NCBI GenBank assembly: GCA_001784175.1
Contig: MFPR01000001.1
Span: 248,001-292,560 of the forward strand
Origin: Candidatus Lindowbacteria bacterium RIFCSPLOWO2_12_FULL_62_27
Lineage (GTDB): Bacteria; Lindowbacteria; 2-12-FULL-62-27
Direction of reading: 5' to 3'
Length of the DNA stretch: 44,560 bases
Of the stretch, positions 7,863 through 34,001 are shown one piece after another. A model generated the notes under the pieces. That model had not been told where the DNA came from, made no database searches, and saw only the letters and a program-made list of their open reading frames with translations. How positions within the stretch are numbered: the first letter of the stretch is position 1; each line of letters opens with the position of its first letter. The position numbers and the translations under genes are program-made.

Positions 7863-8377
7863 AAGTCCGACCCGCCTTCGGGTTCGCGCCGGTCTTCCTG
7901 CGCCATCCGCGCCGCCAGGCCGCTGCCGCGCGGGCGGCGATGGCCGTCGCCGTCGGCGAATTCGGAAGCGTCGTCGATCGGCGCCTGCGGGGACGGTTTT
8001 TTCGGATCCAGCACCGCCCGTATTTTTCTGACGAGGGTGTTCGAATTGAACGGCTTGGCCAGGTAATCCGCCGCGCCCGCCCGGACCGCGGCCATGACGG
8101 TGTCGCGGTCGGCGACGGCCGTCATCATCACGACGGGGATGTGGCGGGTGGTCGGATTGGCATGGAGGCGCCGGCAAACTTCCAACCCGTCCAGGCCGGG
8201 CATTTTGACGTCCATCAGCACCAGCGCCGGATTGAACTCGGCGACGTGTTCAAACGCCTGCTGCCCGTCATCGGCGGAGTCGGCCTCGAACCCGGCCTGG
8301 CTGAGCAACAGCACTGTCGTGATCCGCACCGACATCTCGTCGTCCACCACCAAAATCCGGCAGGGATCGGCCGTCAT
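7859..8377 (-). CDS. Response regulator receiver protein with charged C-terminal tail
   Basis: ILVVDDE, LMDVKMPGLDG, MMTA, YLAKPF; ATGA overlap with the upstream kinase. Confidence 0.9.
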   Translation of the reverse strand: MTADPCRILVVDDEMSVRITTVLLLSQAGFEADSADDGQQAFEHVAEFNPALVLMDVKMPGLDGLEVCRRLHANPTTRHIPVVMMTAVADRDTVMAAVRAGAADYLAKPFNSNTLVRKIRAVLDPKKPSPQAPIDDASEFADGDGHRRPRGSGLAARMAQEDRREPEGGSDL

Positions 8378-10953: not shown

Positions 10954-11068
10954 CACCGCCCCCCCCCACCCCTCAACTACTTGGAGATCAGAAGGTTGGG
11001 ATTTCATGATCATAAATCCAAAATGTGCCAGGGGCGACATATATATATGGAGAGGAGGCTTCCGATTT

Positions 11069-13306: not shown

Positions 13307-14850
13307 AAATCCACCGACATTTTAAACCGCAGGAATTCCTCGTGGCTGCGGTTCAGGCCGTAGGCCGGGCCCGGGACGAACATGCCGAGCTGCAGGAGAT
13401 AGCGGAGGTCGGCGAGAGGTTTCCAGGAAAGTTGCGCATCGTATTCGTGGCCGATGTTGTCTCCGAGTCCGCCGGGCGACACGTTGTACACCGGGTCGGA
13501 CGTCGGGCCGGCTTCGTCTTCGGCGAGGAAATAATAGTAGGTCAATTGCAGGGTGCAGTCGTTGAGCGCCATGTGCGAGCTTCGGGCAAACGGCCGGACG
13601 CTGAATCCCGATTTGAAGGCGTGCAGGTTCGCCAGGGCCGGCGCCAGCGCCACGCCGAGATTGAGTCCGCCGAATCCCCGGAACACCGTGTCCCGCCCCG
13701 CCGTCGATCCGCCGCTCGAGGAGAACACGTTGCCGATCCGGTCCCGGTCACCCGACGCGCCGGCAACTTCGGCGAAAATCGAGGGCGCAAGATCCGTGCC
13801 GCCCACAAAAAACTGCATCCCGAGATCGTAGGCCGTCGCGTAGACGCCGATCCGCTGCGTCGTGCCGAGGTGCCCGTAGGTCAGGCCCCGCTCGAGGACA
13901 AACTCGCCCCAGATCGACAGGCGCGAAAGGGGGCTGGCCTCCATCGTGAAGCCGTAGTAGCGCGAGTCGAGCTGGTGGCGCTGGCCGTTCACGGCGAAAT
14001 CGAAGTTATGATCGAGGTTGAACAAGAGGTAGGCCCCGAAGGACTGGCCGCGGCGAATCTGATAGCGCGTTTCGAATCCGTAGAATTGCCGTTTCGTGCG
14101 GCCGGGGCCCGGCGCGAGGAAATCGAGGTTGTCATCGCCGGGATTCTGCCGGAGCGCCATCGCCCGGAGCGACCACCGGCCCCGGTCGGCCTGCCACGAC
14201 AGGCCGTCCGCCGTGAGGCCGAACGCGAGGCCGCGCCCGACCGACACAAAGTGCCGGCCGAGCCGCAGGCGGTGGCGGAAATGCGCGGAGAAGGCGCGTT
14301 CCCAGTAGAGCATTTCGATTTTGGGCTGGATAAAATCGCTGCCGCGGATCGCCGGAGAATTTTTTTTCGTCTCGGTGTATCGCGCGGCCGACCGGAAGTA
14401 GAATTTGCTGGTCCGCGGCGCGTTCTGGACCAATGCGTACACCCGGCCGTCATACACCCACGCGTGGTCTTCCGCGTCGGCCACGGTGTCCTGCCGGTCG
14501 TTGTCGTCCGAGGTCGTATAGGTCGTCGAAATCGTCGAGCCGATGTCGAGGAGCCATCCGCGCCGCCGGCTCGCCCCGAGCCCATCCTCGGTCCGCCGCA
14601 ACTCGTCCACGGATTCGACCCGCTCGCGCCGCCGGTCCTCGCCCGACATCTGGGCGGCCGCCGGGGCGGGCAATAGGCAGAAGACAAGAAGCAACAGGTA
14701 AGCGGGGAACGGTACCCCCCCTCTCCCGCCGTAGGCGGGAGAGGGTCGGGGTGAGGGTGGCAGTCTCCGGTCGTCGTCATCTGCCCCCCTCACCTCAATC
14801 CTCTCCCCCCTTCGGGGGGAGAGGAGGTGAATAGACAGATCAATTCTCAT
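13303..14850 (-). CDS. Outer-membrane beta-barrel, alginate-export-like
   Basis: Alternating beta-strand pattern, LRLGRHF..GRGL, ASGD, NL..FKSG, IGHEYD motifs; ATG 14850 overlaps the M6 stop. Confidence 0.65.
   Translation of the reverse strand: MRIDLSIHLLSPRRGERIEVRGADDDDRRLPPSPRPSPAYGGRGGVPFPAYLLLLVFCLLPAPAAAQMSGEDRRRERVESVDELRRTEDGLGASRRRGWLLDIGSTISTTYTTSDDNDRQDTVADAEDHAWVYDGRVYALVQNAPRTSKFYFRSAARYTETKKNSPAIRGSDFIQPKIEMLYWERAFSAHFRHRLRLGRHFVSVGRGLAFGLTADGLSWQADRGRWSLRAMALRQNPGDDNLDFLAPGPGRTKRQFYGFETRYQIRRGQSFGAYLLFNLDHNFDFAVNGQRHQLDSRYYGFTMEASPLSRLSIWGEFVLERGLTYGHLGTTQRIGVYATAYDLGMQFFVGGTDLAPSIFAEVAGASGDRDRIGNVFSSSGGSTAGRDTVFRGFGGLNLGVALAPALANLHAFKSGFSVRPFARSSHMALNDCTLQLTYYYFLAEDEAGPTSDPVYNVSPGGLGDNIGHEYDAQLSWKPLADLRYLLQLGMFVPGPAYGLNRSHEEFLRFKMSVDL
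14715..14833 (-). repeat. REP-like palindromic doublet, in frame in the barrel-gene 5' end
   Basis: Same two hairpin halves as 13172..13289 with a different spacer. Confidence 0.95.
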
Positions 14851-17359
14851 AATACGCGTAGACAACCTTTCGGCCTGATGAAGACGAGATCAGCCAGTCT
14901 CGCAGGTCTCGGAGGAAACCAAACGGCGGCCGATTCGCGCCGGGCCACCAGCGTCGTATCAAGCACGCCGCCGGATACGCCGCCAAGCCGCCGCTTCCGC
15001 CGCTCGCCGTGAAGAGAAACGCCCGGAACTCGCCCGGCGCCGGCGTGTACACGTACTCGGGCGACGCACGAAGATCCACGACCGCGCCCGAGACGAGATC
15101 CTGCAGCGTCAGCGGAATGTCCGGCGGGATGGATTCGATCCCCTGCGCGCGGATCGTGACCTCGCCCTCGGCGTCGGTGCCGACCTTCAGGCGCCACGAT
15201 CGCGCGTCTGTCGGCGCGCGGTACACGGCGCTGTAATGCTCGCCGGCCTCCTCCCATCCGACCCAGATGCCTGTGGGGGCTGAGGGCGCTTTGGGCGCGC
15301 GCGAGGACCGGCTCCGGACGCCGGCCTCCGTCTGCCGGTTGGCGTCGCCCCGTTGATTGACGACTTCGAACCGCACAGACCAGTCATACGCTCCGGTAGC
15401 CAAAGAGGGCGCGGAAAATCCGGCGCCCGGCGGCGCGAGCGACGCATACGGCGGGACCAGCATGGTGCAATTCTGCGCGGCGTACAGCCACAGGCCCTTG
15501 AACGGCTCCAGTGCGGGGTTCGTCACCGTGGCGCCGGCGAGGCTGGGGCCGTGGATATATCCGGTTTCGGGTTTGTAGTAGTAAACCTCGCCGTCCCGAA
15601 GCAGGCCGTTGGTGATCGCGGCCGAATAGGTGTAGGTCGATCCGGCGGTCGAGACGAATTTCAAATCTTTCACGAGAATTTTAAATTTAAACGGATTGCC
15701 GATCTGGTTCCATCCGGAAAACAGCGCGACCGGCACCGTGTCGTAGCGTGTCGTATCGCTGAGGGCCGAGGTCTGCGCGGTTTCCTGAATGTCCTTCGAC
15801 GTCGAATCGGTCAGTCTGGCCCAGTAGCCGTATCCGGCCGAGAAGGCGGAGGTCAGGGACAGCGCGGAATATTTTTGCAGGATCGGATCCTCCTCGCCCG
15901 AGGAAACCTCGGGGTTCCAGCGAAAGAGCTGGGAGGCGGAGAAGGTGACGCCGAATTCGTTCAAATCGCGGACAAGGCTGTCCGCCGTGTATGTGATTTT
16001 GTGCAGGGGAAACGGGAGAGAAAACAGGGCCCACTGATCGGGCGCCGTCAGAAAGGAGTCGACCGGCGCCTTCACATCCGCAAAATCGACCAGCAGCGTG
16101 AGTTTGCTGTTCTGCAGCGTGATGTACTTGATCGAAAATCTCGCCGCTGCGTCGCTGTTGGGCCGGGAATTCGGCGTCGTATTGTCGGCAAAGGCCGTCT
16201 TGCCTTTCGCGCCGGGCCACGGATGGGACGAGGTGGCGACATAGGACCCGCTGAGCTTGCCGATGTCGGTCCCGTCGGCCTCCTCAAGGTCGAGCCGCCG
16301 GAACTTGACGACCGTCGTGTTGTTGACGTCGTTGTTCGTGATCGTTCCCGTATCCTGGTCAATGTGCCAGATGAGCAGCCCCACGCCCGCGGCCGTGTCG
16401 GGATCGCCGGCGCCCGGGTAGCGGAACTCGAGCAGAAAATATTCGGACGTGTCGCCGGCCGCGGCGAGGATTTTATAGATGCGGGAGTCAGATTCGACCG
16501 GGTTCATCGTGACGTAGGTTGTCGTGTCGATCTGCACGGTATCGCCCCAGTTCAAGTACTCCCGGCTCCACGGGTCCATCCACGTCGGGCTGTCGCCGAG
16601 AATGGGCGCGGCGGCGCCCTGAAAATTTCCGTTGCCGAGGAGTGTCCAGTCGCCATTGCCGCCGTCGGCCGACGTCGTGTTGTAGAGGTCGGGCAGGCCC
16701 AGCTCGTGGCCGAATTCGTGGCAGAACGTGCCGAAAAAGCTGATCGAAAGCGACGAGGTGAGCTTGTAGGTTTCGAGCGGCGTGATGATCGCGTAGCCCA
16801 CGGTCTCGTTGGTCTGCGTGTCCGTGAACGGCATGGACGAAATGTTCTGCACCTTGGTCTGAAGGTCTCCGGTCTTGCTCGTAATGGATTTGCCGGGCCC
16901 AGCATGAAAGAGCGTCACGCTGTGGTACTGGGAAAAGTCGACGTAGGTGTCGACGCGCGCCAGGACTTCCCGCACAAGCAGGATCAGGCCGTTCGTATCG
17001 GTGCGCATCGTGTAACCGGCCTTCGTGTCCGACACGGTCACCATGAGCGTATCGAAGACGGTGTAGGCCAACTGCATTTTTCCGTACGAGATCCGCCGGT
17101 AAAACGTGTCGGCGCGGTCGAGCAGGACGCGCGCGTAGTTGCCGAGCGTGGTCGTATCGGCATGAAACACGCCGGTGTCGGCCGTCAGAGACGTCGACGC
17201 CTGCTGGAACTGCACGAGGAACGCGGCGATCCTGGCGGTCCCGGCGGGCGTGACATTGGCAAACCCGGGCGCGGCCTGAGCGGCGCAGACCGGCCACAGG
17301 CAACAGGCGATCGGCCAGAGCAAGATCGTGCGGAACCCCGTCCTGAAATGCTTCGACAT
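14840..17359 (-). CDS. M6-family (immune inhibitor A-like) secreted metalloprotease with CFI-box-CTERM-like tail
   Basis: Signal peptide; FHAGPG; zinc motif CHEFGHELGLPDLY; PWSREYLNW; EYFLLEFR; GLLIWHID; C-terminal ACLI...LRDLRDWL...GRKVVYAYY. Confidence 0.85.
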   Translation of the reverse strand: MSKHFRTGFRTILLWPIACCLWPVCAAQAAPGFANVTPAGTARIAAFLVQFQQASTSLTADTGVFHADTTTLGNYARVLLDRADTFYRRISYGKMQLAYTVFDTLMVTVSDTKAGYTMRTDTNGLILLVREVLARVDTYVDFSQYHSVTLFHAGPGKSITSKTGDLQTKVQNISSMPFTDTQTNETVGYAIITPLETYKLTSSLSISFFGTFCHEFGHELGLPDLYNTTSADGGNGDWTLLGNGNFQGAAAPILGDSPTWMDPWSREYLNWGDTVQIDTTTYVTMNPVESDSRIYKILAAAGDTSEYFLLEFRYPGAGDPDTAAGVGLLIWHIDQDTGTITNNDVNNTTVVKFRRLDLEEADGTDIGKLSGSYVATSSHPWPGAKGKTAFADNTTPNSRPNSDAAARFSIKYITLQNSKLTLLVDFADVKAPVDSFLTAPDQWALFSLPFPLHKITYTADSLVRDLNEFGVTFSASQLFRWNPEVSSGEEDPILQKYSALSLTSAFSAGYGYWARLTDSTSKDIQETAQTSALSDTTRYDTVPVALFSGWNQIGNPFKFKILVKDLKFVSTAGSTYTYSAAITNGLLRDGEVYYYKPETGYIHGPSLAGATVTNPALEPFKGLWLYAAQNCTMLVPPYASLAPPGAGFSAPSLATGAYDWSVRFEVVNQRGDANRQTEAGVRSRSSRAPKAPSAPTGIWVGWEEAGEHYSAVYRAPTDARSWRLKVGTDAEGEVTIRAQGIESIPPDIPLTLQDLVSGAVVDLRASPEYVYTPAPGEFRAFLFTASGGSGGLAAYPAACLIRRWWPGANRPPFGFLRDLRDWLISSSSGRKVVYAYYEN

Positions 17360-17390
17360 TTGCTTATTGTATATATCGGAAAAAAGCCTC

Positions 17391-17435
17391 AAAAAAACAA
17401 AAAAACCGGAGGCCCGCTTCTTCGCGGACCCCCGG
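17391..17435 (-). terminator. Intrinsic terminator downstream of the Pro-rich repeat gene
   Basis: Minus strand CCGGGGGTCCGC-GAAGAA-GCGGGCCTCCGG followed by TTTTTTTGTTTTTTT. Confidence 0.85.
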
Positions 17436-17467
17436 TCGATGTATCTTGAAGGTACCCTAGTTCAGCC

Positions 17468-20400
17468 TCAAACCGCTTCCATCGGAATCGGATACGGCGG
17501 CGGCGGCGCCAGCGGCGCCACGTAACCGCACCCGTCCGGCTCACAGCCGGCTACAAACGTGTTGGTGCCTTCCGGCGGAATCGTACACTGACTCGTCGCC
17601 GGATCGTAGGTCGTGCCCGGCGGGCAATCGATCATCACGCTGCCCGGAGGCGGCGGCTCGGGAGATCCCGGCGGAGGCGGCGGCGCGTCCGGTGGAGGTG
17701 GCGGCGCCACTTCCATGCCCGGCGGCATCACCGCGTACTGCGACTCGTTCGGAATCGTCACCGTTCCCGAGGTGGCATCGACTTCCGATCCCGGCGGGCA
17801 GGTCCATGCGACGGTTCCGTCCGGATTCGCCTGGACATCCGGCGGCAGGACCGCCGACTGGTACTCGTTCGGAACCGTCATCGAGCCCTCGCCAAACTCC
17901 GTGCCCGGCGGCGCCACAAACGTCACGGCGCCGTCCGGTCCCACCGCCACGTTCGGCGGCAGAACTTGGTACGTCTGGTCCGGCGGGATGACGCAGGTGC
18001 CTGTGGCCGGATCGTACGTCGCGCCCGGAGGGGGCGTAACGGTTACCGATCCGTCCGGATTGCATGAAGCTCCGTCCGGCATCACCATCGCCGAGTACTC
18101 CTGCGGGATCGTGAACGTGTTGGAATTGGCGTCAAACGTGGTGCCTTCCGGCATCGCGCACGTCACCGTGCCGTCCACGGGACTGACCGTGATGTTCGGC
18201 GGCAGTACCGCGCCGGCCTCGGCCGGCGGCAGAACGACCATGGGCGGCGGAGGCGGCGCCCCCGGCGGAACATCCGGCGGAGGCGGAAACTCCGTTCCCG
18301 GCGGCATCGTGCAGGTACACGTGCCGGCGTTCGGATCGAAAGACATCGGCACCGTCGCGTACGTCTCGCCGAAGGTTTCGGGCGGCATGACGCACATGGG
18401 CGGCGGCGGGGGAGGCGGCTCCGCGCCTGGCTCGAGCGGAGGCATGGGCGGCAGAGGCGCCATCTGGACGCCGTCGGCCGGTGTTCCCACATCCACCGCG
18501 ATCGCATACGCGGGCGGCGGCGGGGGCGCTTCTCCCGGAGGCATATCCAGGGGCGGCGGCGGCGGAGGCGGCGCGTAACCCTCGACGTCTCCGGCCGGCA
18601 CCAGTTCCCCGGTCCCGGTGTTCTCGCAAATCATCGCCGTGCCTTCCGGCGGCATCGTGAATTCGCCGGAATTGGCTTCATAGGTACAGCCCGGCGGAAC
18701 TTCGCAGGTGCAGGACCCGTCCGGATTCACCGTGACTTCCGGCGGCATCACCATCGGCGTGTACTCGTTGGGAATGGTGCAGGTCCCGGCGTTCGGATCC
18801 ACCGTCCATGCGGCGTCCCCGGCCGTCGGATAGGCCATCGTGCAGGTACCGGCGTTCGGGTCGAACTGCATGACCGGCGCGATATCGCCCGGCGGGGGCA
18901 ACGGAGCTCCCGGCGGAATCGTCTCGCATCCGGTGATGGCGGCCTGAACTTCCGATGTCGGCGGGATCGCAAACGTCCCGGCGTTCGGATCGATGTTCGT
19001 ACACTGGATCGTCAGCGCGCCGTCCGGCTGAACCGTACAGCCTTCCGGCATCACAGCGGGCGCGCCTTCGGGCGGAACCATGAACGTTCCCGCATTGGGA
19101 TCCATGGTGGTTCCCTCGGGACACGTCATGGTCATCGTCCCATCGGGATTGGCCACCACGCCCGGCGCGGGTTCGGCCATGTAGGGCGGGCAGTCCGGAG
19201 CGGGGCAGGTGATCGTTCCGTCCGGGGGATTCATCGTCGCTTCCGGGGGACACTCGCACGTGACGCTCCCGTTGGCGTTGATGTCCACGTAAGGCGGCAC
19301 ATAATCCGCAGTGGCATCGGGCGGAATCGTCACGGTGCCGGCGGCCGGATCATACTGGGTGCCCTCGGGGGCCACGCAGTTGATCGCGCCGTCCGGCGCA
19401 TAGGTCATATCCGGCGAGGGCAAGAACATCCCGCCGGCGCCGTCGGTCGGCATGGTCATCTGACCGGCGTCCGGATTGTACGTCGTCTCGGGCGGCATCT
19501 CGCAGGTGCAACTGCCGTCCGGATTGACGGTCGCATAATCCGGGCAGACCATCTCGGAGCCTTCCGGCGGCAGCGTGAACTCGCCGGAGTTGGCGTCGAA
19601 GGTGGTTCCTTCCGGACATGCAAGGGTACACGATCCGTCCGGCGCGATGTCGACGCCCGGCGGAACGGTGGGACAATCCTGAGGCGGATAGTTCAACGAT
19701 CCCGCGTTGGGATCATAGACGGTGCCCGGAGGACACTCCACACCGATGTTGCCGTCCGGCATGACGGTCGCGTCGACCGCGGGCGCGAACGTATCGATCG
19801 CGTCCTGCGGCGGCATCGTCACCGTGCCGGCTTCTGGATTGACTTCACACGTCGGCGGCAGCGCGCAGGTCACCGCTCCGTCCGGAGCGACCGCCACGTT
19901 GTCGGGACAAACCATGCTCGCCTCGGCGGGCGGCAGCGTGACGGTCCCGGCATCGGGATTCATCTCGCCGCCCGGAGGCAGGCTACACATGCAGTCGCCG
20001 GTCGGCATCACCTGAACGTCCGGCGGCGTCACTGCGTACGCGCCATCCGGCGGCAGCGTGAACTCGCCGGAGTTGGCCTCGAACGTCGTGCCTTCCGGCA
20101 TCGCAACCGCAACCGACCCGTCCGGCATCGGAGCGCATCCGTCCGGCATACAGGGTGGGGGCGGCGGGGGCGGAACGCCTGCGTCGGCCGGAGGCGGGGG
20201 CGGATATTCCACCGTGCCTCCGTACGGAGCGTCCGGCGGCGCGGGCGCGACTACCGCGTCCGGCGGCAGGGGCGCCACGACGTCACCTGTCGGCGTCACC
20301 GTCGTCTCAGGCGGCAACACCATCGCCGCTTCGCCGGCCGGGAACGTCACCACGGGCGGCGGGGGCGGAACATCGGGCGGCAGATACGGCGGCGGGGGCG

Positions 20401-20872
20401 GGGGTTCCTGGAAGGTACACCCGTCCGGGCAGCTCATGACCACCGAGCCGTCCGGCATCGGGGCGAGGCCTTCCGGCATCACCGCGTCCGCCGATTCGTA
20501 TGGAACCGCCAGCGCTCCCGCGTTGGGGTCATACGTGCAGTCCGGCGGGCATGTCATCACAGCCGCGCCGTCCGCGTTGTACATGCAGTCCATCGGGTAG
20601 GCATCCACCGGCGGCGGGGGCAGTGCGCCCTCCACCATGGTGGCGTCACCGGTCGCGGGAATAAACGTGTCCGCGCCGGCGGTCGCGCCGCTGTCGTACT
20701 GCGTCATGTCGTACGACGTCGACGTGTCGGCCGTCGATTCGGCATCGGCGGTCGTGTCGGTCGGCGCGTCCATCGGGATTGCCCCTCCGAGCGCACCGGG
20801 CGCTACAATCTCGTCCAGCTTCTCGACTCTGACTCCCTTCTTCTTACCTTTACCGGGATCCTTTGGAGCCAA
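17468..20872 (-). CDS. 1134-aa Pro/Cys/Met/acidic tandem-repeat protein with basic N-terminal leader, function unknown
   Basis: TTG start with GAGGAGGT RBS; about 40-aa repeats (CPxGTxYDPxxGxxTxPP...VxPDGxxT); own terminator. Confidence 0.85.
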   Translation of the reverse strand: MAPKDPGKGKKKGVRVEKLDEIVAPGALGGAIPMDAPTDTTADAESTADTSTSYDMTQYDSGATAGADTFIPATGDATMVEGALPPPPVDAYPMDCMYNADGAAVMTCPPDCTYDPNAGALAVPYESADAVMPEGLAPMPDGSVVMSCPDGCTFQEPPPPPPYLPPDVPPPPPVVTFPAGEAAMVLPPETTVTPTGDVVAPLPPDAVVAPAPPDAPYGGTVEYPPPPPADAGVPPPPPPPCMPDGCAPMPDGSVAVAMPEGTTFEANSGEFTLPPDGAYAVTPPDVQVMPTGDCMCSLPPGGEMNPDAGTVTLPPAEASMVCPDNVAVAPDGAVTCALPPTCEVNPEAGTVTMPPQDAIDTFAPAVDATVMPDGNIGVECPPGTVYDPNAGSLNYPPQDCPTVPPGVDIAPDGSCTLACPEGTTFDANSGEFTLPPEGSEMVCPDYATVNPDGSCTCEMPPETTYNPDAGQMTMPTDGAGGMFLPSPDMTYAPDGAINCVAPEGTQYDPAAGTVTIPPDATADYVPPYVDINANGSVTCECPPEATMNPPDGTITCPAPDCPPYMAEPAPGVVANPDGTMTMTCPEGTTMDPNAGTFMVPPEGAPAVMPEGCTVQPDGALTIQCTNIDPNAGTFAIPPTSEVQAAITGCETIPPGAPLPPPGDIAPVMQFDPNAGTCTMAYPTAGDAAWTVDPNAGTCTIPNEYTPMVMPPEVTVNPDGSCTCEVPPGCTYEANSGEFTMPPEGTAMICENTGTGELVPAGDVEGYAPPPPPPPLDMPPGEAPPPPPAYAIAVDVGTPADGVQMAPLPPMPPLEPGAEPPPPPPPMCVMPPETFGETYATVPMSFDPNAGTCTCTMPPGTEFPPPPDVPPGAPPPPPMVVLPPAEAGAVLPPNITVSPVDGTVTCAMPEGTTFDANSNTFTIPQEYSAMVMPDGASCNPDGSVTVTPPPGATYDPATGTCVIPPDQTYQVLPPNVAVGPDGAVTFVAPPGTEFGEGSMTVPNEYQSAVLPPDVQANPDGTVAWTCPPGSEVDATSGTVTIPNESQYAVMPPGMEVAPPPPPDAPPPPPGSPEPPPPGSVMIDCPPGTTYDPATSQCTIPPEGTNTFVAGCEPDGCGYVAPLAPPPPYPIPMEAV

Positions 20873-21058
20873 TCTTCCACCTCCTCAAATGTGATTGTTG
20901 AAGGACATCGAAACCTCGATCGTCCCCTCCCAATCCCCCTTGTTGCCACTCGTATTTTTATCCGCAGTCACGCGGAATATCAATGAATTCGTTGTCAATA
21001 TTGGCACTTCCGGAAAGTAGAGTCTGACACAGAATGCGTGTGTCCAAAGACACAGGCA

Positions 21059-21080
21059 AAATGTGAATAAATTCACTTTT
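21059..21080. promoter_or_regulatory. CRP/FNR-type operator
   Basis: AAATGTGA-ATAAAT-TCACTTTT versus the CRP consensus AAATGTGA-N6-TCACATTT; a Crp/Fnr gene lies in the adjacent operon. Confidence 0.65.
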
Positions 21081-21223: not shown

Positions 21224-23383
21224 ATGCCCGAAGCAGCCCAGAAACGGCTTGGACCCAAACTTCGAGACGACCTGATCCTGGTCGAGAAGATTCGCCAAGG
21301 CAAGCGGCTCCTTGTCATCAAGGACCCGCTGAAAGTTCAGTACTACCAGTTCGGCGAGCTGGAGATCACGCTCTTTCGCCTGCTGGACGGAAAGACGCCC
21401 CCGCCGAAGATCGTCGAGGAATTCAACAAGACGCACCCGGACGCCGAGATGGCGATGGACGAATTGAAGGAATTTCTCGGGGAGATCGAGAAGATGCACC
21501 TTCTGGAAAAATCGGCCGCCGAACGCAACGCCCTCCTGATTGAACGCCTCAAAGAAGAACGCAAGAACAAATTGATGAGCAAAAAGGGATCGATCCTCTT
21601 CAAGCGCTTCCCCCTGGTCGACCCGAACGACTTTTTCGACCGGATCCATCCGTACATCGCGTGGCTGTGGAGCGTGCCGAGCGTGATTTTCCAGTGTCTG
21701 GTGATTGTGGCGGCGGGGGTGGCCCTGGCGTACAACTGGGACCGGTTCATCGACGGCATCGAGGCGGTGTTTTCGTTCGGCGAGCAGACAGCGTCCAGCT
21801 TTCTGTGGCTGTGGCTGACGATCATCTGCATCATCATTTTTCACGAGCTGGGGCACGGCCTGACGTGCAAGCATTACGGGGGCGAGGTGCATGAGATGGG
21901 GTTTCTCCTGCTGTTTTTCCAGCCGTGTTTTTACGCGAACGTGACGGACGCCTACATGTTTTCGAACAAGAACCACAAGATGTACGTGACGTTCGCGGGC
22001 ATCATCGCGGAATTTTTCGCCGGCGCCATCTTCTGCTTCCTGTGGCTCCTGACCGATCCCTCGACGGGCTTCAACGCCATCTGCTACCAGGCGATGACGG
22101 TCTGCAGCGTCTCGTCGGTCGTGTTCAACCTCAATCCCCTTCTCAAGTACGACGGTTACTACGCCTTTTCCGAATGGGTGGACCTGCCGAACCTCAAGCA
22201 GAACTCGGGGGACGTGCTGGAGAAGTGGCTGCAGAGGATCTACAAGCGGAAGGAGGACATCGAAGAGGACGAATTGACGATGCGGGAGCGGCGGATTTAC
22301 ATCTGGTACGCGATCATCTCCAACCTTTTCATGATCTCGATGCTGACGGGGCTTTTTTTCATGATCAAGGACATCTTCTTCGAGGCGGCGCCGGAACTCG
22401 GGTGCCTCGCGTTTCTCTTTGTCGTCGGGAAACTCCTGAACAGCCAGATTTCCGCGACCGTGAAATTTGTCAAGGATTTCTACCAGTACGAAAGCGCGGC
22501 CTTCGGCGCGATCAAAACGCGGTTCGTGGCGCTGGCCCTCGTCGCGTTTCTGGTGGGGCTCTGTTTTACGGTGCCGTATCCGATCGTGGTGGAGAAACAG
22601 GTGACGATCGAGGCGAGGGACCGGTGGGTGGTGCGCGCGCCGGTGGAGGGATTTCTGGAGGAGATGTACGTGAAGAGCGGAGACGAGGTGAAAAGCGAGC
22701 AGCCCCTGTTTCTGATCGCGAATCCCGAAAAGAGCCGCAAACTGGCGGACCTCGCGGCCGAGGGGCCGAAATACCAGATGCAGCGCGACCAGGCGCTCGC
22801 CACGGACGAAGTCGGCAAGCTGGCCGACATTCAGCTTCGCGAATCCCAGACGGCGGCCGAGCGCAGGGCGATTTTGCGGGACCTTGAAAAAATGAAGACC
22901 TACGCGCCGGCCACCGGCCTCTTGCTGACGACCGGCGTGGAGGAGCTGAAAGGCAAGTACTACAAGGCCGGCGACAAGATTCTGGAAATCGTGTGTCTCC
23001 GCAATCTCTATTCGGTGGTGGAACTCGAAGAGCGCGAGGCGGGGGAGGTGCGGGACCAGAAATCGGCGGCGCGGATGGGCGGCGGGGTGGAGCCGACGAC
23101 GGCGCGAGTGAAAGTGAACGCGATGCCGGGCCGGCTGTTTGAGGCGCGGGTGGGCGAGGTCGATTCGTTTGCGGACACCGGCGGCGTCACGCGGAAGTTC
23201 CGCGCCAAGATCGTCATCCCCAACCCCGACTTCGACTACGGCGTCAACATCCTCGCCTCCGGCCAGATGCTGCGGCCCGGCATGACCGGCATGGCCAAGC
23301 TCGACATCGCGACCGCCACACCCGCCGGCGCCATCGGCCGGTGGCTTGCGGGATTTTTCAGAATGGATTTGTTCATGTACTGA
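21224..23383 (+). CDS. PqqD/RRE-like + site-2 protease (M50) + membrane-fusion-protein fusion
   Basis: N-terminal VIKDP..QYYQF...LLDG...L..F...LLE; FHELGHG (HExxH); NLNPLLKYDGY (NPxxxxDG); several TMs; VRAPVEG lipoyl-like segment and LRPGMTG. Confidence 0.9.
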   Translation: MPEAAQKRLGPKLRDDLILVEKIRQGKRLLVIKDPLKVQYYQFGELEITLFRLLDGKTPPPKIVEEFNKTHPDAEMAMDELKEFLGEIEKMHLLEKSAAERNALLIERLKEERKNKLMSKKGSILFKRFPLVDPNDFFDRIHPYIAWLWSVPSVIFQCLVIVAAGVALAYNWDRFIDGIEAVFSFGEQTASSFLWLWLTIICIIIFHELGHGLTCKHYGGEVHEMGFLLLFFQPCFYANVTDAYMFSNKNHKMYVTFAGIIAEFFAGAIFCFLWLLTDPSTGFNAICYQAMTVCSVSSVVFNLNPLLKYDGYYAFSEWVDLPNLKQNSGDVLEKWLQRIYKRKEDIEEDELTMRERRIYIWYAIISNLFMISMLTGLFFMIKDIFFEAAPELGCLAFLFVVGKLLNSQISATVKFVKDFYQYESAAFGAIKTRFVALALVAFLVGLCFTVPYPIVVEKQVTIEARDRWVVRAPVEGFLEEMYVKSGDEVKSEQPLFLIANPEKSRKLADLAAEGPKYQMQRDQALATDEVGKLADIQLRESQTAAERRAILRDLEKMKTYAPATGLLLTTGVEELKGKYYKAGDKILEIVCLRNLYSVVELEEREAGEVRDQKSAARMGGGVEPTTARVKVNAMPGRLFEARVGEVDSFADTGGVTRKFRAKIVIPNPDFDYGVNILASGQMLRPGMTGMAKLDIATATPAGAIGRWLAGFFRMDLFMY

Positions 23384-23384
23384 G

Positions 23385-24116
23385 ATGCCGCCCCAGAAAA
23401 TCGCGCACCGGTTCGGCCAGAGAAAAACGATGGCGGCCCCGGTTTCCTCCTTTGCGCTCCTCTCCCAGCACCCCATCTTCTCCAAGATCCCGGAAGGGGT
23501 CCGCCGGGAGCTGGTGGCCAGCGGGAGCCTCGTGCGTATACCGCAGTATTCGCTGCTGTTTCACCAGGGCGATGAGGTCACGGCCGCCTATCTCGTCATG
23601 GAGGGCCTCGTCAAAATTTACAGGAACATGGGCGAAGCCGACCGCACACTCGGATTTATCTACAAGTCGGGCATGGTCGGCTTGGACGCGCTCCACGCCA
23701 CGGACGGCCATCCCTACAGCGCCCAGGCGCTGGGCTCGGTCGTCGTCTGCGCCTTTCCCAAGGAGGCGATCCAGTCGATTCTGGCGCGCACGCCCGAGTT
23801 GGGGCCGCTGCTTCTGGCTGAAGTCACGCGCCAGTGGGAGGAGGCGCTGCACGAGCAGGACATCCTGACGCGCCGGAGCACGAACGGCCGGATCGCCGAC
23901 AAGATTTTGCGGCTGGCCGAAAAGTTCGGCCGGGTCGAGGCCGCGGGGACGGTGCTCCTGCTGAAGATCACCCAGCGCGAGCTGGCCTCCATGGCCGGCA
24001 CCAACCGCGAATCGGTCTGCAAGGCGCTCGTGACCTTCAAGCGGGAGGGCTCGATCGACATTCAGAACAAGCTGATCGTGGTCAAGAACAAAACCAAACT
24101 CGCCGCTTGGCCATAA
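23385..24116 (+). CDS. Crp/Fnr family transcriptional regulator
   Basis: LFHQGD, YLVMEGLVKI effector domain; HTH ITQRELASMAGTNRESVCKAL; alternative start ATG 23430. Confidence 0.92.
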   Translation: MPPQKIAHRFGQRKTMAAPVSSFALLSQHPIFSKIPEGVRRELVASGSLVRIPQYSLLFHQGDEVTAAYLVMEGLVKIYRNMGEADRTLGFIYKSGMVGLDALHATDGHPYSAQALGSVVVCAFPKEAIQSILARTPELGPLLLAEVTRQWEEALHEQDILTRRSTNGRIADKILRLAEKFGRVEAAGTVLLLKITQRELASMAGTNRESVCKALVTFKREGSIDIQNKLIVVKNKTKLAAWP

Positions 24117-24141: not shown

Positions 24142-25782
24142 ATGCGGACTGCCTTTTTTCGGACAGCCTGTTTCCTGATCTGTCTGATAACTATTCACCT
24201 CCTCTCCCCCCGCAGGGGGGAGAGGACGAGCGAAGCTCGGGTGAGGGGGGTTGATTGGCGCCGAGCTAAACCGGCCACCCTCACCCCAACCCTCTCCCGC
24301 CTATGGCGGGAGAGGGGAGGGTTCCAAACGCCTCCCGCCCACGCCGAGGGGACGAGGAGACTCTCCATCACCGACGCGCTGAAGCTGGCGCAGGAGCGGA
24401 ACCCCACGTTTTCAAAGGCCAGCCTAACCTACGAATCGTCGCGGCTGACGTACCTCAAGACCCTCCACGGGCTGGGCTGGGTCGAGTCGTTCACGGCGTC
24501 CAGCGACTACAAGCGGGACGAGTCGTTCAGCTATTCGAAATATTTCAACACGACCGGCGAACGCGTCAGCGCGACCCGGAGCCGGACCCTGAGCAACACG
24601 ACGTCCTGGAACCTCAAACGCACGTTCGGGTCGGGCATGGCCACCGACTTTTATTCCAAGCTCACGACCAGCGACGGATCCAGCCGGTACAACGCGTTCA
24701 AGGGCGCGCTCGCGGACGACGCCAGCAGCAGATACAAATACATCACGCAGAAGTTCAATCCCGAAGTCGGCGTGAATCTCACGCTGCCGATCATCGGCAA
24801 GGACAAAAACAGCACCGACTACAGCCGGAAACAGGCGGACGCCTCGTGGGCGCAGGCCGAGATCGATTTTGAGGAGGCCAAAAAAAGCCTCGTGCTGTCC
24901 GTCCGGCAGGGATACTTTGATCTCCTCAAGTACCGGCGGATGGCCGCGCTTCGGAAAGAGGTGCTGGCCGAGGCCGAGGAACGGCTGGAGGTGACCAAGA
25001 AGCGGCTGAGTGTCGGGATGACGACCGAGATGGACGTGTCGCAGGCGGAGCTGACGGTTCTGAGAAACAGGGCGGACCTCGCCGACGCCGTTTTTTCGGA
25101 ACAGCAGGCCCAGAGCCGTTTCAACAGCCTGATCGGCCTGCCGCTGGACGACTACTACGACCTGACCGACGGATTTCCCCCGGAGCCGGTCCGCGAAGTG
25201 ACGATGAAGATGGTGCAAAGCCGTGTGATTTCCGCGAGCGGGGATTTGCGGCGGATGAACAAGGACATCGAAGTTTCGACGATCTCCGTCGAGCAGGCCA
25301 AGTCGAAGATGCGGCCGGCCTTCGCGTTCAAATCGAATCTTGCGCTCGAGGGCGAGCGGCGGGACCTGCCGAGGGTCCTGCGCAATCCCGAGGAGAAATA
25401 TTCCTTCACGCTGACCTACGATTTTCCGTTCGGCGAAAAGGTGACGCAGAAGGCGGACTTGGAGCTGGCTGAGGCGGGCCTGAGCACGAAGGTCCTGGAG
25501 CGGGACGAACTGAATCAGAGCCTGATCCTCGACGCGACCGAGACGTACCAGGAGCTGTTGAAGGTCCAGCGGCGCCTGGCGATCGCGCGGCAGTCGCGGG
25601 AGGTGTCGGAACGGAGTCTTCGGATCGCGCAGGCGAAGTTTGACGAGGGCCGGGGCGAGATCACCGACGTCATCTCCGCCAAAACGTCCCTCGTGAACGC
25701 GCAAGTCGAAGAGCTGAACAACCTCTACAGTCTGGCCGTGGCGACGGCCGAACTCGAGATGCTCACCGGAGAGTCGATCTAG
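24142..25782 (+). CDS. TolC-family outer membrane channel
   Basis: LSITDALKLAQERNP, VRQGYFDL, RLSVGM, KFDEGR OEP motifs; signal peptide split by a repeat. Confidence 0.88.
   Translation: MRTAFFRTACFLICLITIHLLSPRRGERTSEARVRGVDWRRAKPATLTPTLSRLWRERGGFQTPPAHAEGTRRLSITDALKLAQERNPTFSKASLTYESSRLTYLKTLHGLGWVESFTASSDYKRDESFSYSKYFNTTGERVSATRSRTLSNTTSWNLKRTFGSGMATDFYSKLTTSDGSSRYNAFKGALADDASSRYKYITQKFNPEVGVNLTLPIIGKDKNSTDYSRKQADASWAQAEIDFEEAKKSLVLSVRQGYFDLLKYRRMAALRKEVLAEAEERLEVTKKRLSVGMTTEMDVSQAELTVLRNRADLADAVFSEQQAQSRFNSLIGLPLDDYYDLTDGFPPEPVREVTMKMVQSRVISASGDLRRMNKDIEVSTISVEQAKSKMRPAFAFKSNLALEGERRDLPRVLRNPEEKYSFTLTYDFPFGEKVTQKADLELAEAGLSTKVLERDELNQSLILDATETYQELLKVQRRLAIARQSREVSERSLRIAQAKFDEGRGEITDVISAKTSLVNAQVEELNNLYSLAVATAELEMLTGESI
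24192..24317 (+). repeat. REP-like palindromic doublet, in frame inside the TolC signal peptide
   Basis: Near-identical to 13172..13289 but 9 nt longer, carrying a CGAGCGAAGCTCG mini-hairpin. Confidence 0.95.
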
Positions 25783-25783
25783 G

Positions 25784-28189
25784 ATGGCGGCCGACACGCA
25801 GACGGCGAACCTAGATGAGCTGCAGGCCAAGCTCGAGCGGCTGACGCTCCTTTACGAAATCAACCGCGATTTCCACTCCACGCAGGACCTCGCGGAACTC
25901 ATGCCGAAAGTCTTCGAGGACGTCCTCAAGGCGATGAACTGCGAGGGCGGGTCGCTGTGGATGTGGGATGACGATGCGAAGATGATCACCTGCGAAAACG
26001 CGTTCGGGCCGGGCAGCGAAAACGTCAAGGGCTTGAAGCTTCCGAAGGGCACCGGGATTGTGGGCTGGGTGATCAACATGAAGAAGCCGACGATCGTGAA
26101 GGACGCGACGGCCGACAAGCGATTTGCGGGCACGACGGACCAGAAGACGGGCTTTGTCACGAAATCGATGATCTGCGTGCCGCTCCTGACGCAGGCCGGG
26201 GTCCTGGGCGCGATCCAGGTCCTCAACAAGAAGGGCGACACCGGCCAGTTCAACGACGAGGACCTCGAGCTTTGCAAGGTCATGGCCGAAAACGCGGCCG
26301 GCGCCATCGTCAACGCGCGGGCCTACGAGTCGGAAAAGACGGCGCGGGAGCGCATCCAGGTGTTCAACGAGTTCAACAAGGCCCAGAGCACCACGCTCGA
26401 TTTGGACAAGCTGCTCGACATCATCCTCAAGCGCGTCGTCACCATCCTCGACGCCGTCGCCGGCAGCATCTGGCTCCGGCAGGGCGGAGACCTCCTCGCC
26501 AAGGTCGCGGTCGGGCCGACCGCCGGGAAGCTGGTCGGCGCCAAAGTTGGGGTCGGCACGGGGATCGTCGGGAGCGTCGTCCAGAAAAAAGCGCCGGTGA
26601 TCGTGGAAGACACCTCGAAATCGGAATTGTTTTCCGGCAAGGTCGACGATGCCACCGGATTCAAGACCAAGTCCCTCATTACCGTGCCCCTCATCCACCA
26701 GGACGAGGCGATCGGCGCCATCCAGATCATCAACAAGAAAAAGGACGACGACTGGTTCACCAAGGACGACATGGACCTTCTGTCGAGTCTCGCGGGCCTG
26801 TCGACCAGCGCCATCAAGAACGCGACGCTGTACGAGGTCGAGCGCAAGGCGAAGGACCTGTCGATTTTGCTGGACATCTCGAAAGAGGTCTCGTCGAACC
26901 TCGACATGGACAGCGTCCTTGTGACGGTCGTGAACCTCACCAACCAGGTGGTGCCCTACGAGCGGGCGGCGATGTTCGTGAAGAACGAAAACAAATACGA
27001 TTTGCGCGCGGTGTCGGGCGCCGCCAAGATCGACAAGGCCGACCCGGCGATCATGGCGCTCGACAACGCGGCCGACGCGATCGACAAGGACCTGTACATC
27101 GCCGACGCGGAGAAGTATCTGGCGGAGGGCGGGGGGATTGCGGCGGTCAAGGACTATCTGAAACAGGCCGGCATCGCGTCGTTTTACGCGCGGGTCCTGG
27201 CCGACGACCAGGGACCGCTGGGCATGATGACGATGGAGAGCAAGAACAAGGATTTCGTCCAGCCAGCGCAGATGGAGATGCTGACGATCCTGGCCAACCA
27301 GATCACCGTGTCGATCCGCAACGCCGAGCTGTACAAATCGGTCCCGATGTTTTCGGGCTTTGGCAAGGGCGCGACCCTCAAGAAGGTGCTGGTGGGCGGC
27401 GCGATCGCGCTGGGGGTTCTGGCGGGGCTCGGGGCGCTTTTGTGGTTTCCGAAAGTCGAGCACCGGCTCGGCGGGCAGGTCGACATCGAGCCGATCGTGC
27501 GCAACAAAATTTACGCGAAGGAAAGCGGGATTCTTGACAAGGTCCACTTCCGGGAGGGCGACACCATCAAGGTCGGAGACCTTTTTGCCGAACTTTCCCA
27601 ACAGGACATGGAGCAGGAGAAACTGAAGATCCAGACGAAACGCGAGATCGCCCGCCAGTCGTATCTGCGGTCGGTGGGCCTGTCGAACATGGCGGAGGCA
27701 CGGATGAAGGAGGCCGAGATCGCGCAGGCCGACCGCGAGATGTCGAACCTGTCGAACAAGATGGAGAACACGCGGATCATCTCGCCGCACGAGGGCCAGG
27801 TCCTGACGGCCGACCTGCCGCAGAAGGTCGGGGAAAACATCAGCCGGGGCGCGGTCGTCGGCGATGTCGTCGATCTGTCGAAACTTCAGGTCAAGTTCGG
27901 CGTGCCGCAGGAGCAGATCCGGTACGTCGCGGCGGGGCAGGAGATCCGGTTCAAGGTCTCCTCCTACCCGACGCGGACCTACACGGTCAAGATCGAGCGC
28001 ATCGGCATGGAAGGCTCGACCCAGGAGGACAAGACGATCTACAACGTCTACGCGACCATTGAGAACGCCGACCGGACGCTCAAGGCGGGCATGTCGGGCC
28101 GCGGGAAGATTCTGGCGGGCAAACAGCGCCCGTTCCAACTCCTGATGGAGGAACCGGTCCATTGGATGCGGATGAACTGGCAGTGGTGA
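25784..28189 (+). CDS. Triple-GAF-domain membrane fusion protein (HlyD-like)
   Basis: GAF repeats (GIVGWV...TKSMICVPL...IQVLNK..F..ED), TM VLVGGAIALGVLAGLGALLWF, then MFP (IISPHEG, LKAGMSG). Confidence 0.88.
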   Translation: MAADTQTANLDELQAKLERLTLLYEINRDFHSTQDLAELMPKVFEDVLKAMNCEGGSLWMWDDDAKMITCENAFGPGSENVKGLKLPKGTGIVGWVINMKKPTIVKDATADKRFAGTTDQKTGFVTKSMICVPLLTQAGVLGAIQVLNKKGDTGQFNDEDLELCKVMAENAAGAIVNARAYESEKTARERIQVFNEFNKAQSTTLDLDKLLDIILKRVVTILDAVAGSIWLRQGGDLLAKVAVGPTAGKLVGAKVGVGTGIVGSVVQKKAPVIVEDTSKSELFSGKVDDATGFKTKSLITVPLIHQDEAIGAIQIINKKKDDDWFTKDDMDLLSSLAGLSTSAIKNATLYEVERKAKDLSILLDISKEVSSNLDMDSVLVTVVNLTNQVVPYERAAMFVKNENKYDLRAVSGAAKIDKADPAIMALDNAADAIDKDLYIADAEKYLAEGGGIAAVKDYLKQAGIASFYARVLADDQGPLGMMTMESKNKDFVQPAQMEMLTILANQITVSIRNAELYKSVPMFSGFGKGATLKKVLVGGAIALGVLAGLGALLWFPKVEHRLGGQVDIEPIVRNKIYAKESGILDKVHFREGDTIKVGDLFAELSQQDMEQEKLKIQTKREIARQSYLRSVGLSNMAEARMKEAEIAQADREMSNLSNKMENTRIISPHEGQVLTADLPQKVGENISRGAVVGDVVDLSKLQVKFGVPQEQIRYVAAGQEIRFKVSSYPTRTYTVKIERIGMEGSTQEDKTIYNVYATIENADRTLKAGMSGRGKILAGKQRPFQLLMEEPVHWMRMNWQW

Positions 28190-33998: not shown

Positions 33999-34001
33999 GC
34001 T

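Follow-up and report, generated by a model that had tools for sequence, protein, structure and literature searches.

Why should a bacterial protein of more than 1,100 residues carry every one of its basic residues at the extreme N terminus, and what might the genes beside it do with such a protein? The question is posed by a locus in a window of 44,560 nt, by which we mean the whole stretch of DNA that was analyzed; all coordinates given here are positions in that window. The protein, termed the cargo below, is encoded as follows.

17468..20872, minus strand: cargo gene, encoding an acidic, Pro-rich repeat protein of 1,134 aa (ORF, composition, orthologues, dN/dS; single copy in the genome)
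20880..20886, minus strand: Shine-Dalgarno sequence GAGGAGG, read from the sequence
20798..20872, minus strand: leader as predicted, spanning residues 1-25, in which KLDEIVAP is preceded by a Lys-rich stretch and which has all seven Lys/Arg of the cargo (tag conservation; cut by analogy with daptides)
20597..20797, minus strand: spacer of low complexity and acidic composition, residues 26-92 (full-length model, pLDDT 31-39)
17558..20596, minus strand: repeat body, residues 93-1105, with 18 strong and about four partial 39-aa units separated by poly-Pro linkers (HMM hits, unit profile, AlphaFold)
17404..17437, minus strand: intrinsic terminator of the cargo gene, a stem of 14 pairs, 10 of them GC, with a T-run behind it

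The cargo ORF starts with TTG, and its translation has a computed mass of 114.3 kDa and a pI of 4.05, with 248 Pro (21.9%), 126 Ala, 116 Thr, 103 Gly, 93 Val, 81 Asp, 61 Glu, 55 Met, and 45 Cys. Lys occurs only at residues 4, 8, 10, 11, 12, and 18, Arg only at residue 15, and His nowhere, which bears out the initial annotation's reading that all basic residues fall within the first 18. The 1,116-residue stretch devoid of Lys, Arg, and His is the longest among the 7,190 open frames of at least 200 aa in the genome, where the next-longest such run is 201; in the genes neighboring the cargo, these three residues make up 14.0%. Runs of three or more Pro number 16, the longest being the seven already noted at the outset, which is seen three times. 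A dependence on EF-P had been drawn from these runs; the factor is encoded in this genome, as it is in nearly all bacteria, and the point is trivial. Neither a signal peptide nor a membrane segment was found in the cargo (top 19-residue hydropathy, 1.14).

Several long overlapping frames are present on both strands, as might be expected if the cargo were no gene but merely a chance open frame in GC-rich DNA. We give that reading next to no credence: dN/dS in the cargo frame is 0.24-0.34 against two orthologues, indicating purifying selection; relatives occur in other phyla; the repeats have a confident fold prediction; and the frame is flanked by the ribosome-binding site, 7 nt upstream of the TTG, and by the terminator, both of which had been recognized from the start. 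The comparative data already refute a non-gene, and the cargo is a real gene under selection. Pieces of the contig carrying it were identical in three further DNA runs. That the protein is abundant, as had also been proposed, follows only weakly from a good ribosome-binding site and a terminator.

Orthologues of the cargo, 76% and 58% identical to it, are encoded in two of the three other genomes of the phylum. Searches of 1.84 billion proteins returned 30 representative homologues at E <= 1e-3, and a second search returned 33; the remote relatives number about 30, and those with a name are nearly all Bdellovibrionota. Orthologues and remote relatives alike keep two traits, an N-terminal tag and a near-absence of Lys and Arg behind it. 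Among 35 relatives of at least 700 aa (seven rows having been dropped), Lys plus Arg after the tag had a median of 0.61% and a range of 0-3.76%, with none at all in three relatives, and each in-phylum orthologue has a single Lys after the leader. The tag and the exclusion of Lys and Arg are conserved in this family. A comparable acidic spacer is also present in the relatives. The composition had been thought to spare nitrogen, an idea that does not survive the comparison, because the remote relatives avoid Lys and Arg yet contain 13-97 His and 4-11% Asn, giving 0.17-0.24 side-chain nitrogens per residue versus 0.058 in the cargo. Judged from these sequences, what is avoided is positive charge rather than nitrogen.

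The key feature, which the initial annotation missed, is the N-terminal leader: the basic residues are confined to a part of the protein that is probably cut off. KLDEIVAP, at residues 18-25, is a diverged version of a tag of the form LE[ED]R[IV]AP; it aligns without gaps to the tags of 34 database relatives and is identical in both in-phylum orthologues. Within the family, it is the N-terminal and not the C-terminal part that is conserved. The tag is also found outside the family. In 5 of 12 distant loci (G191, G342, G395, G274, and G022), small ORFs bearing it share the strand of a homologous M50 protease gene and lie within about 400 bp of it; a pattern search picked up four of these cases, and the fifth came from an HMM that had not been trained on it (E 6.9e-4). 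The tag appears to mark short peptides, of ca. 8-100 residues, as well as proteins longer than 1,000 residues. The LEPR-XLL/LEPR-8K N-terminal domain of giant proteins (NCBIfam NF012209) may be linked to the cargo tag. LEPR-XLL consists of a short "LE-x-R" motif at the N terminus of very large proteins that have no signal peptide, a description that the cargo shares in size, in the absence of a signal peptide, and in the position of its motif. The 24-position NF012209 model matched neither the whole cargo nor its first 60 residues, and a genome-wide search with it was likewise without a match, but the controls were silent as well.

The genes around the cargo are these.

21224..23383, plus strand: M50 intramembrane metalloprotease fused to a HlyD-type periplasmic adaptor (Pfam Peptidase_M50, HlyD_D23), divergent from the cargo
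23346..24116, plus strand: Crp/Fnr-family regulator inside the machine operon (cNMP_binding, HTH_Crp_2; lineage-specific)
24142..25782, plus strand: TolC-like outer-membrane factor (OEP, E 1.4e-38; TolC family)
25784..28189, plus strand: GAF-GAF(-GAF)-TM-HlyD fusion (GAF, E 1.9e-40; HlyD_D23)
28162..29181, plus strand: third HlyD-type adaptor (HlyD_D23, E 5.2e-31)
21059..21080, no strand: CRP-like palindrome TGTGA-N6-TCACT (inverted repeat I4) in the shared divergent promoter region
14840..17392, minus strand: M6 (InhA-like) secreted metalloprotease, downstream neighbor (Peptidase_M6, TIGR03296)

The M50-HlyD gene starts 351 bp from the cargo start, and the TolC-like gene, the GAF-HlyD fusion, and the third HlyD gene form one operon (24142-29181). 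In 14 related loci, orthologues of M50-HlyD lie beside the cargo in 12 and those of GAF-HlyD occur in 12; the third, small HlyD was found in 12 by BLASTP and additionally in L002 by Pfam, and an OEP-like cluster of 25 ORFs, four of which were checked by Pfam, covers 13. No other gene family, shadow frames aside, occurs in four or more of these loci. The linkage spans two phyla, its synteny is kept at about 30% protein identity, and the cargo and M50-HlyD are both present in the same three of the four genomes of the phylum. The M6 protease, an orthologue of which follows the cargo gene in G002, has none in the 14 loci and is a lineage-specific neighbor outside the conserved set. Similarly, the Crp/Fnr regulator is present in G002 and G003 and was not found in the 14 loci; that it binds the CRP-like palindrome is a guess. 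In the related loci, the machine is accompanied by no conserved ATPase or other source of energy, and an ABC transporter is neither present in the window's operon nor recurrent in those loci. Thus, by sequence, the conserved set beside the cargo comprises protease, adaptor, and TolC-like genes without a pump. The called starts of the TolC-like and third HlyD genes are probably too far upstream. REP-like elements were seen at 24270-24324, inside the called 5' end of the former, and at 28196-28250, in the latter.

M50-HlyD matches the NCBIfam model daptide_HExxH (E 6.9e-53; 180.1 bits, below the cut-off of 300), with residues 12-415 aligned to positions 2-375 of the 379 in the profile, the N-terminal region included. 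The HExxH and NPxxxxDG motifs are invariant in all 14 M50 sequences, about six hydrophobic segments lie between residues 151 and 452 (GAF-HlyD has one, at 532-550), and the C-terminal part resembles MacA in a PDB profile search (E 8.9e-14). There is also a weak match to the NCBIfam YydH/LiaK family (E 1.6e-13). Pfam found no PqqD/RRE in the N-terminal 130 residues, nor was an RRE structure among the PDB profile matches; PqqD is annotated on 10-28% of the members of related Atlas clusters. In daptide biosynthesis, the MpaA leader, which has Leu at position -7 and Pro at position -1, is removed by MpaP, an intramembrane leader peptidase that depends on an RRE (Ren et al. 2023, PMC10036551). The match of M50-HlyD covers nearly the whole profile, including the region of the DapP RRE, and the cargo leader would have the same Leu and Pro spacing if cut after Ala-Pro. 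By this analogy, we infer a cut after Ala-Pro25, upstream of which all basic residues lie and which would leave a product of 1,109 aa that has 138 Asp/Glu but lacks any basic side chain. The systems differ in that the window's protease is fused to an adaptor and scores 180 bits against a cut-off of 300, in the lack of a decarboxylase, aminotransferase, or methyltransferase among the 30 window ORFs scanned, and in the cargo itself, which ends in Val rather than the invariant Thr and has 1,109 residues rather than the few dozen given for daptides (PMC10036551).

The combination of GAF, M50, and HlyD proteins was recognized by comparing genomes in 2015: Kamneva, Poudel & Ward (PMC4452313) described a GAF/Peptidase_M50/HlyD (+OEP) module without an ABC transporter, beside a secondary SecA_DEAD, and proposed a type-I-secretion-like role in which the M50 protein would be the membrane component. 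The window locus has the same three protein types and likewise no ABC transporter; in contrast to that module, its genome has no second SecA_DEAD (PF07517 gave one hit, a housekeeping 1,037-aa frame on another contig), and the 14 related loci show no recurrent gene of this kind. The parts of PMC4452313 that bear on the module name no cargo, leader, signal, or energy source; our locus supplies a cargo family and a recognizable tag, linking the module to RiPP-type leader peptidases. In a further system, the M50 protease EpeP/YydH has been proposed to export its epipeptide as well as to cut it (PMC10885120), although the account there is of a Gram-positive host and a small peptide, with no adaptor fusion and no outer-membrane part (PMC10885120).

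Because tiny ORFs with the same tag flank homologous M50 genes in 5 of the 12 distant genomes, we read the cargo as the giant substrate of a pump-less, leader-dependent protease/adaptor export machine, an interpretation that the sequences make somewhat better than an even bet. Given the shared tag and the adjoining machine, the cargo probably undergoes cleavage and leaves the cell as a rod with negative charges only. We infer docking, cleavage site, export across both membranes, location, function, and energy source. The leader, consisting of the first ca. 25 residues with the Lys-rich stretch ahead of the tag, would dock on the cytoplasmic N-terminal domain of M50-HlyD, the part that matches the RRE region of the daptide peptidase. 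The M50 protease would then remove it, probably just after Ala-Pro25, and the 1,109-residue remainder, which has 138 Asp/Glu but neither Lys, Arg, nor His, would leave by way of the three adaptors of HlyD type and the TolC-like channel. Outside the cell, the product may be a stiff polyanionic chain of two-hairpin modules on poly-Pro linkers, which suggests a surface or matrix fiber. The extracellular structural role envisaged by the initial annotation thus gains indirect support, from an envelope-spanning gene set that is held across two phyla and from rigid repeat modules. Against export stand the lack of a conserved energy source, the definition of the published module by its second SecA, a daptide_HExxH score below cut-off, the PqqD/RRE that was not found in M50-HlyD, the diverged tag of the cargo itself, and the occurrence of tag-bearing small ORFs in only 5 of the 12 distant loci. 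We also know of no precedent for the export of a protein of ca. 1,100 residues by a machine whose other partners are peptides of 8-100 residues.

The absence of a signal peptide and of an energizing transporter in the conserved set would equally suit a cargo that is cut by M50 in the manner of site-2 protease substrates but stays in the cytoplasm or periplasm, as a cation store, mineral nucleator, or decoy, with the HlyD and TolC genes serving another purpose; the GAF and Crp-type sensing parts hint at regulation as well. This seems unlikely, as the three adaptors and the TolC-like genes accompany the cargo in 12-13 of the 14 loci and across two phyla, 45 Cys and rigid repeat rods are commoner outside the cytoplasm, and the same tag occurs on tiny peptides that resemble exported products.

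Like adhesins exported by HlyBD-TolC type I systems, the cargo is acidic and repetitive, has no Sec signal, and is accompanied by HlyD/MacA-like adaptors and a TolC-like channel; unlike them, it has no RTX repeats, its signal is N-terminal rather than C-terminal, and no ABC transporter is found at its locus. It could still be an ordinary type I (RTX-like) or double-glycine/PCAT substrate of an ABC transporter encoded elsewhere, with coincidental neighbors. Many type I substrates are acidic, repetitive, and free of a signal peptide, and a Gly-Gly follows the cargo tag. However, the cargo contains no GGxGxD nonapeptide, no C39 peptidase (PF03412) was found in the 94%-complete genome (the control was positive in 7 of 14 genomes), the family is conserved at the N rather than the C terminus, and M50-HlyD synteny holds at about 30% protein identity. 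We regard such a route as very improbable.

The repeat body was defined by an iterated HMM of 39 positions, which gave 23 hits in the cargo, 18 above 30 bits and five weak or partial; the hit at residues 23-50 is probably spurious. The "roughly 20" units of about 40 aa counted earlier is accordingly a fair figure, and "20 or more" slightly generous. The two turn motifs described there are indeed present, 15 times for the DPNAG/DANSG type and 23 times for xPDG, and both carry an Asp in every unit of a profile built from 67 copies. The units are diverged at the DNA level, as had been stated, since copies within families D1 and D5 are only 61-77% identical. AlphaFold predicts four short strands, arranged as two hairpins, and a short helix per unit (pLDDT 94.3 and pTM 0.85 for a four-unit model); according to the model, the units are rigid and the fold is confident. 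The poly-Pro stretches, by contrast, are disordered; they are insertions specific to the lineage, and the G003 orthologue lacks them. Cys and Met had been considered as metal ligands or disulfide partners, but only 22 of 60 Cys columns are conserved among three orthologues and most Cys are replaced by Val, Ala, Thr, or Met, so buried strand positions fit this pattern better than fixed sites.

Why Lys and Arg are excluded is a separate matter. They may be missing on account of the mature function, through resistance to Lys/Arg-specific proteases, the binding of Ca, Fe, or Mn by a uniformly anionic brush, or the avoidance of self-association; to this we assign slightly less than an even chance. 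The Asp at both turns of every unit favors such a cause, as does the conserved avoidance of Lys and Arg but not of His and Asn. This reading is compatible with export and differs only in what causes the composition. Alternatively, the exclusion could be imposed by the route: in the absence of an ATPase, the membrane potential (negative inside) would drive the unfolded polyanion outward, while the Lys-rich leader held the N terminus in the cytoplasm until the M50 cut. We consider this doubtful; if true, it would amount to charge-driven export of chains longer than 1,000 residues and would account for the confinement of all basic residues to the discarded part. The locus gives access to how a protein may cross two membranes without a known motor, and its cargo, at 1,109 residues, a net charge of about -138, and no basic side chain, is an extreme of natural composition that trypsin-based proteomics would miss.

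The confidently predicted repeat fold has no solved counterpart: fold searches matched no solved or viral structure, no Pfam family rose above cut-off (CBM_14 was best at 19.1 bits against 22.1; DUF6799 reached 18.1 against 26.8), and no NCBIfam repeat family matched. Against PDB sequences, the unit profile picked up a streptococcal adhesin (6vs7, E 1.1e-4) and CPAP (4bxp, E 1.6e-4), in each case through stretches that are individually non-significant (i-Evalue 0.18-8.5), and both are absent from the fold-search results. What the Rib/aRib adhesin and CPAP G-box hairpin motifs have in common with the cargo unit is an "x-D-G-S/T-x-T-V" turn-strand pattern, a likeness that the sequences place at the motif level only. 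A weak aRib match was seen in one relative of the cargo.

The gene at the centre of this analysis, hereafter the cargo gene, probably encodes a giant, basic-residue-free member of a class of leader-tagged cargo proteins, and the protease-adaptor machine that would serve this class is uncharacterised. The exact composition of the protein (21.9% Pro, 45 Cys, 55 Met, 81 Asp and 61 Glu; pI 4.05) agrees with the initial annotation, which had placed all basic residues within the first 18 amino acids: there are six Lys (positions 4, 8, 10, 11, 12 and 18), one Arg (position 15) and no His. The resulting run of 1,116 residues free of Lys, Arg and His stands alone in the genome, where the next longest is more than five times shorter (201 residues; 7,190 open frames of at least 200 amino acids); in the genes neighbouring the cargo, these residues amount to 14%. 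The protein has no hydrophobic segment. The strong ribosome-binding site and separate terminator that had been described were both located.

17468-20872, minus strand: cargo open reading frame, 1,134 codons, TTG start
7 nt upstream of the cargo TTG, minus strand: Shine-Dalgarno sequence GAGGAGG
17437-17404, minus strand: terminator with a 14-pair stem, 3' of the cargo gene

An iterated profile defined the repeat unit as 39 positions, with 18 strong and 5 weak or partial matches in the cargo protein. Two turns, Pro-Asp-Gly and Asp-Pro/Ala-x-Ala/Ser-Gly, are nearly invariant in each unit across 67 copies from three orthologues, as had been claimed for units of about 40 residues, and the copies are only 61-77% identical as DNA, so that the repeats are indeed diverged at this level. 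Thus, judged by composition, repeat profile, turns and DNA divergence, the first description was correct in all essentials. Cysteine is partly conserved (22 of 60 columns), with Val, Ala, Thr or Met as replacements. The full-length structural model (pLDDT 68) gives each unit a short helix and four short strands, and leaves residues 1-93 and the poly-Pro stretches disordered. A four-unit piece (residues 487-647), modelled with 40 aligned unit blocks, reached a pLDDT of 94.3 and a pTM of 0.85; on the strength of this model, the units pack into a defined body that is probably rod-like. Neither model matched the PDB at E≤0.001; the best Foldseek match of the four-unit model had an E of 0.013 and a TM of 0.27. 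That model also gave no match to viral models at E≤0.001 and no alignment with Z≥5 among 48,161 chains searched with VIA-align (top Z 4.7, rmsd 3.8, 69 residues aligned). At the sequence level, Pfam and NCBIfam yielded only sub-threshold matches to the cargo, and the Atlas protein clusters no usable match. The unit profile did match a streptococcal adhesin and the CPAP G-box at E of about 1e-4, yet each matched stretch is non-significant alone; thus, the likeness reflects a common turn-strand motif rather than membership in either family.

The phylum is represented in the collection searched by only four species genomes, all of one family. Two of the other three encode cargo orthologues (76% and 58% identical), and neither cargo nor machine was found in the fourth, an assembly of 370 contigs that is 88% complete. 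The gene is under purifying constraint by its dN/dS of 0.24-0.34. After the leader, one orthologue (G002) has one Lys and four His and the other (G003) a single Lys. The three orthologues differ in their poly-Pro runs, which are insertions; their Pro contents are 21.9%, 18.7% and 13.2%. Identical contig pieces of the locus occur in three further DNA runs (X3-X5), and pieces from a relative occur in a fourth (X8). DNA of the locus is found in metagenome runs from groundwater and soil.

More remote relatives, only 22-36% identical to the cargo, were recovered from 1.84 billion proteins (30 representatives at E≤1e-3) and from a second database (33 proteins, the last four being weak matches of a different kind). 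Those with a name come from metagenome-assembled genomes of Bdellovibrionota, Oligoflexia or Bdellovibrionales. Scanning a single genome for each species gave 14 loci, 13 of them titled Bdellovibrionota and one "uncultured bacterium"; within Bdellovibrionota, the family occurs in 2 of 301 sampled genomes. An N-terminal tag is present in 34 relatives, consisting of a Lys-rich stretch, the motif K-L-E-[DE]-R-I-A-P-G and a Gly-rich tail; the variant in the present lineage, K-L-D-E-I-V-A-P-G, is identical in all three orthologues. After the tag, Lys and Arg together have a median of 0.61% in the 35 relatives of at least 700 amino acids and are missing altogether from three. This count leaves out P0030-P0033 and P0052 (weak matches without the family leader, the first four with signal-peptide-like N-termini), P0040 (no leader), P0047 (leader present, but 508 amino acids and rich in Lys and Arg) and all proteins shorter than 700 amino acids. 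The same relatives keep 13-97 His per protein and 4-11% Asn, which are thus not avoided; it is positive charge that is excluded and not nitrogen, and the nitrogen sparing suggested earlier is not supported as what drives the composition. The exclusion of Lys and Arg may be a demand of motor-less export or a property needed by the mature fibre.

In its own genome, the strict tag occurs once. A loose "LE-x-R" pattern gave 46 matches among N-termini there, none convincing, and the LEPR-8K model gave no match, its controls being likewise silent. A search for shorter proteins with the Bdellovibrio-type leader returned four candidates and one match, a fragment. Against Pfam and NCBIfam, six leader and small-peptide sequences gave nothing usable (top match Amm_Lyn_leader, E 0.13).

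Divergent from the cargo gene is a five-gene operon encoding an M50-HlyD fusion, a Crp/Fnr regulator, a TolC-like protein, a GAF-HlyD fusion and a third HlyD.

21224-23383: gene of the M50 protease-HlyD adaptor fusion, in the operon
21059-21080: CRP-like palindrome TGTGA-N6-TCACT, between the cargo gene and the operon
21028-21065: second inverted repeat, in the same intergenic region

The machine recurs with the remote relatives. By BLASTP, M50-HlyD, GAF-HlyD and the small HlyD are each present in 12 of the 14 related loci, with a thirteenth small HlyD detected by Pfam, and clustering placed TolC-like genes, most often two of them, in 13. No further family recurs in at least four of these loci apart from shadow frames, and no ABC transporter or other ATPase recurs in them. 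The genes downstream of the cargo, considered as candidate parts of the system, are found in none of the 14: an M6 protease, an alginate-export-like porin, a 515-aa ORF and a response regulator. The M6 (InhA-like) metalloprotease (14840-17392, minus strand; 850 aa, signal peptide) lies 3' of the cargo here and in G002 and is absent from the Bdellovibrionota loci; it may be functionally linked to the cargo, which looks protease-resistant. The GAF domains, the operon's Crp-type regulator and the CRP-like palindrome in the common promoter region together suggest small-ligand control.

The M50-HlyD protein has a soluble N-terminal domain of 150 residues followed by about six hydrophobic segments, and its C-terminal part is similar to MacA, EmrA and HlyD. 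Its HExxH and NPxxxxDG motifs are invariant in 14 sequences. The M50 part matches nearly all of the NCBIfam daptide leader-peptidase model (positions 2-375 of 379) at E 6.9e-53 and with a score of 180 bits, which falls short of the 300-bit cut-off. In three M50-HlyD proteins, Pfam found no PqqD domain within the N-terminal 130-160 residues; in some M50-HlyD clusters of the Atlas, 10-28% of members carry an annotation for PqqD, a leader-recognition region (RRE). The only pointers to a putative RRE in this protein are the sub-threshold daptide model and the annotations of related clusters.

Published work offers three points of comparison. Kamneva et al. (2015, PMC4452313) describe a GAF / Peptidase_M50 / HlyD (+OEP) module that lacks an ABC transporter and propose for it a type-I-like secretion role; their module lies beside secondary SecA_DEAD genes, whereas the present genome has a single SecA_DEAD. 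Daptide leaders share a motif with Leu at position -7 and Pro at -1, and the intramembrane leader peptidase DapP carries an RRE within its first 100 residues (Ren et al., PMC10036551). EpeP is thought both to cut its peptide and to export it (review, PMC10885120). Searches of the literature for the module and for the tag gave no account of this cargo or of the tag in the passages covered, and cargos or leader logos might appear in the supplementary figures of PMC4452313 and PMC10036551. By analogy with daptides, we infer that the N-terminal domain of M50-HlyD would read the tag and that the cut would fall after Ala-Pro25. All seven basic residues would then leave with the leader. The product, 1,109 residues long with 138 Asp/Glu and lacking any basic side chain, would exit through the HlyD adaptors and the TolC-like channel.

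Of 401 sampled genomes, 24 matched an M50-HlyD profile at E≤1e-30, among them the present genome and its two kin, and the Atlas places the architecture in Acidobacteriota, Planctomycetota and Pseudomonadota. The analysis covered 12 of the 21 distant loci. Five of these carry small ORFs with an L-E-x-[RK]-[IV]-A-P tag on the same strand as the M50 gene and about 400 bp or less from it: four (G191, G342, G395 and G274) were found by pattern, for which roughly 1.5 chance matches are expected over all DNA scanned, and the fifth (G022) by a profile whose training set did not include it (E 6.9e-4). Beyond the tag, these ORFs continue for 8 to about 85 residues, with no Lys or Arg in four of the five loci. 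Tiny tag-bearing peptides at three loci, marked by pattern or profile, have a core motif in common.

L061:7732-7911, minus strand: tiny tag-bearing peptide
L061:8210-8365, minus strand: tiny tag-bearing peptide
L062:7775-7861, minus strand: tiny tag-bearing peptide
L060:11899-11994, plus strand: tiny tag-bearing peptide

In these three unrelated genomes, an S-Q-G-G-Q motif ends the short cores or sits within them, and one peptide adds a Gly/Trp-rich tail. The same machine may thus make a separate class of small-peptide products.

Elsewhere in the window, a REP-like, GC-rich hairpin element of 55 nt recurs at gene junctions.

13235-13289, 14779-14833, 24270-24324, 28196-28250, 33995-34049 and 34814-34868: REP-like element
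13172-13234 and 14717-14779: partner arms of the element

Several ORFs called mechanically include the element within their 5' ends and therefore have a pseudo-peptide in common; translation of these ORFs probably begins further downstream. A FapA-family gene (6243-8177) is flanked by two paralogous CHASE-PAS hybrid histidine kinases (3682-6246 and 8374-11040; 71-78% DNA identity). The genome also contains very long open frames, on contigs C2 (22,286 codons), C6 (9,114), C28 (5,498), C34 (5,224), C24 (4,954) and C22 (4,790), several of which reach the contig end.
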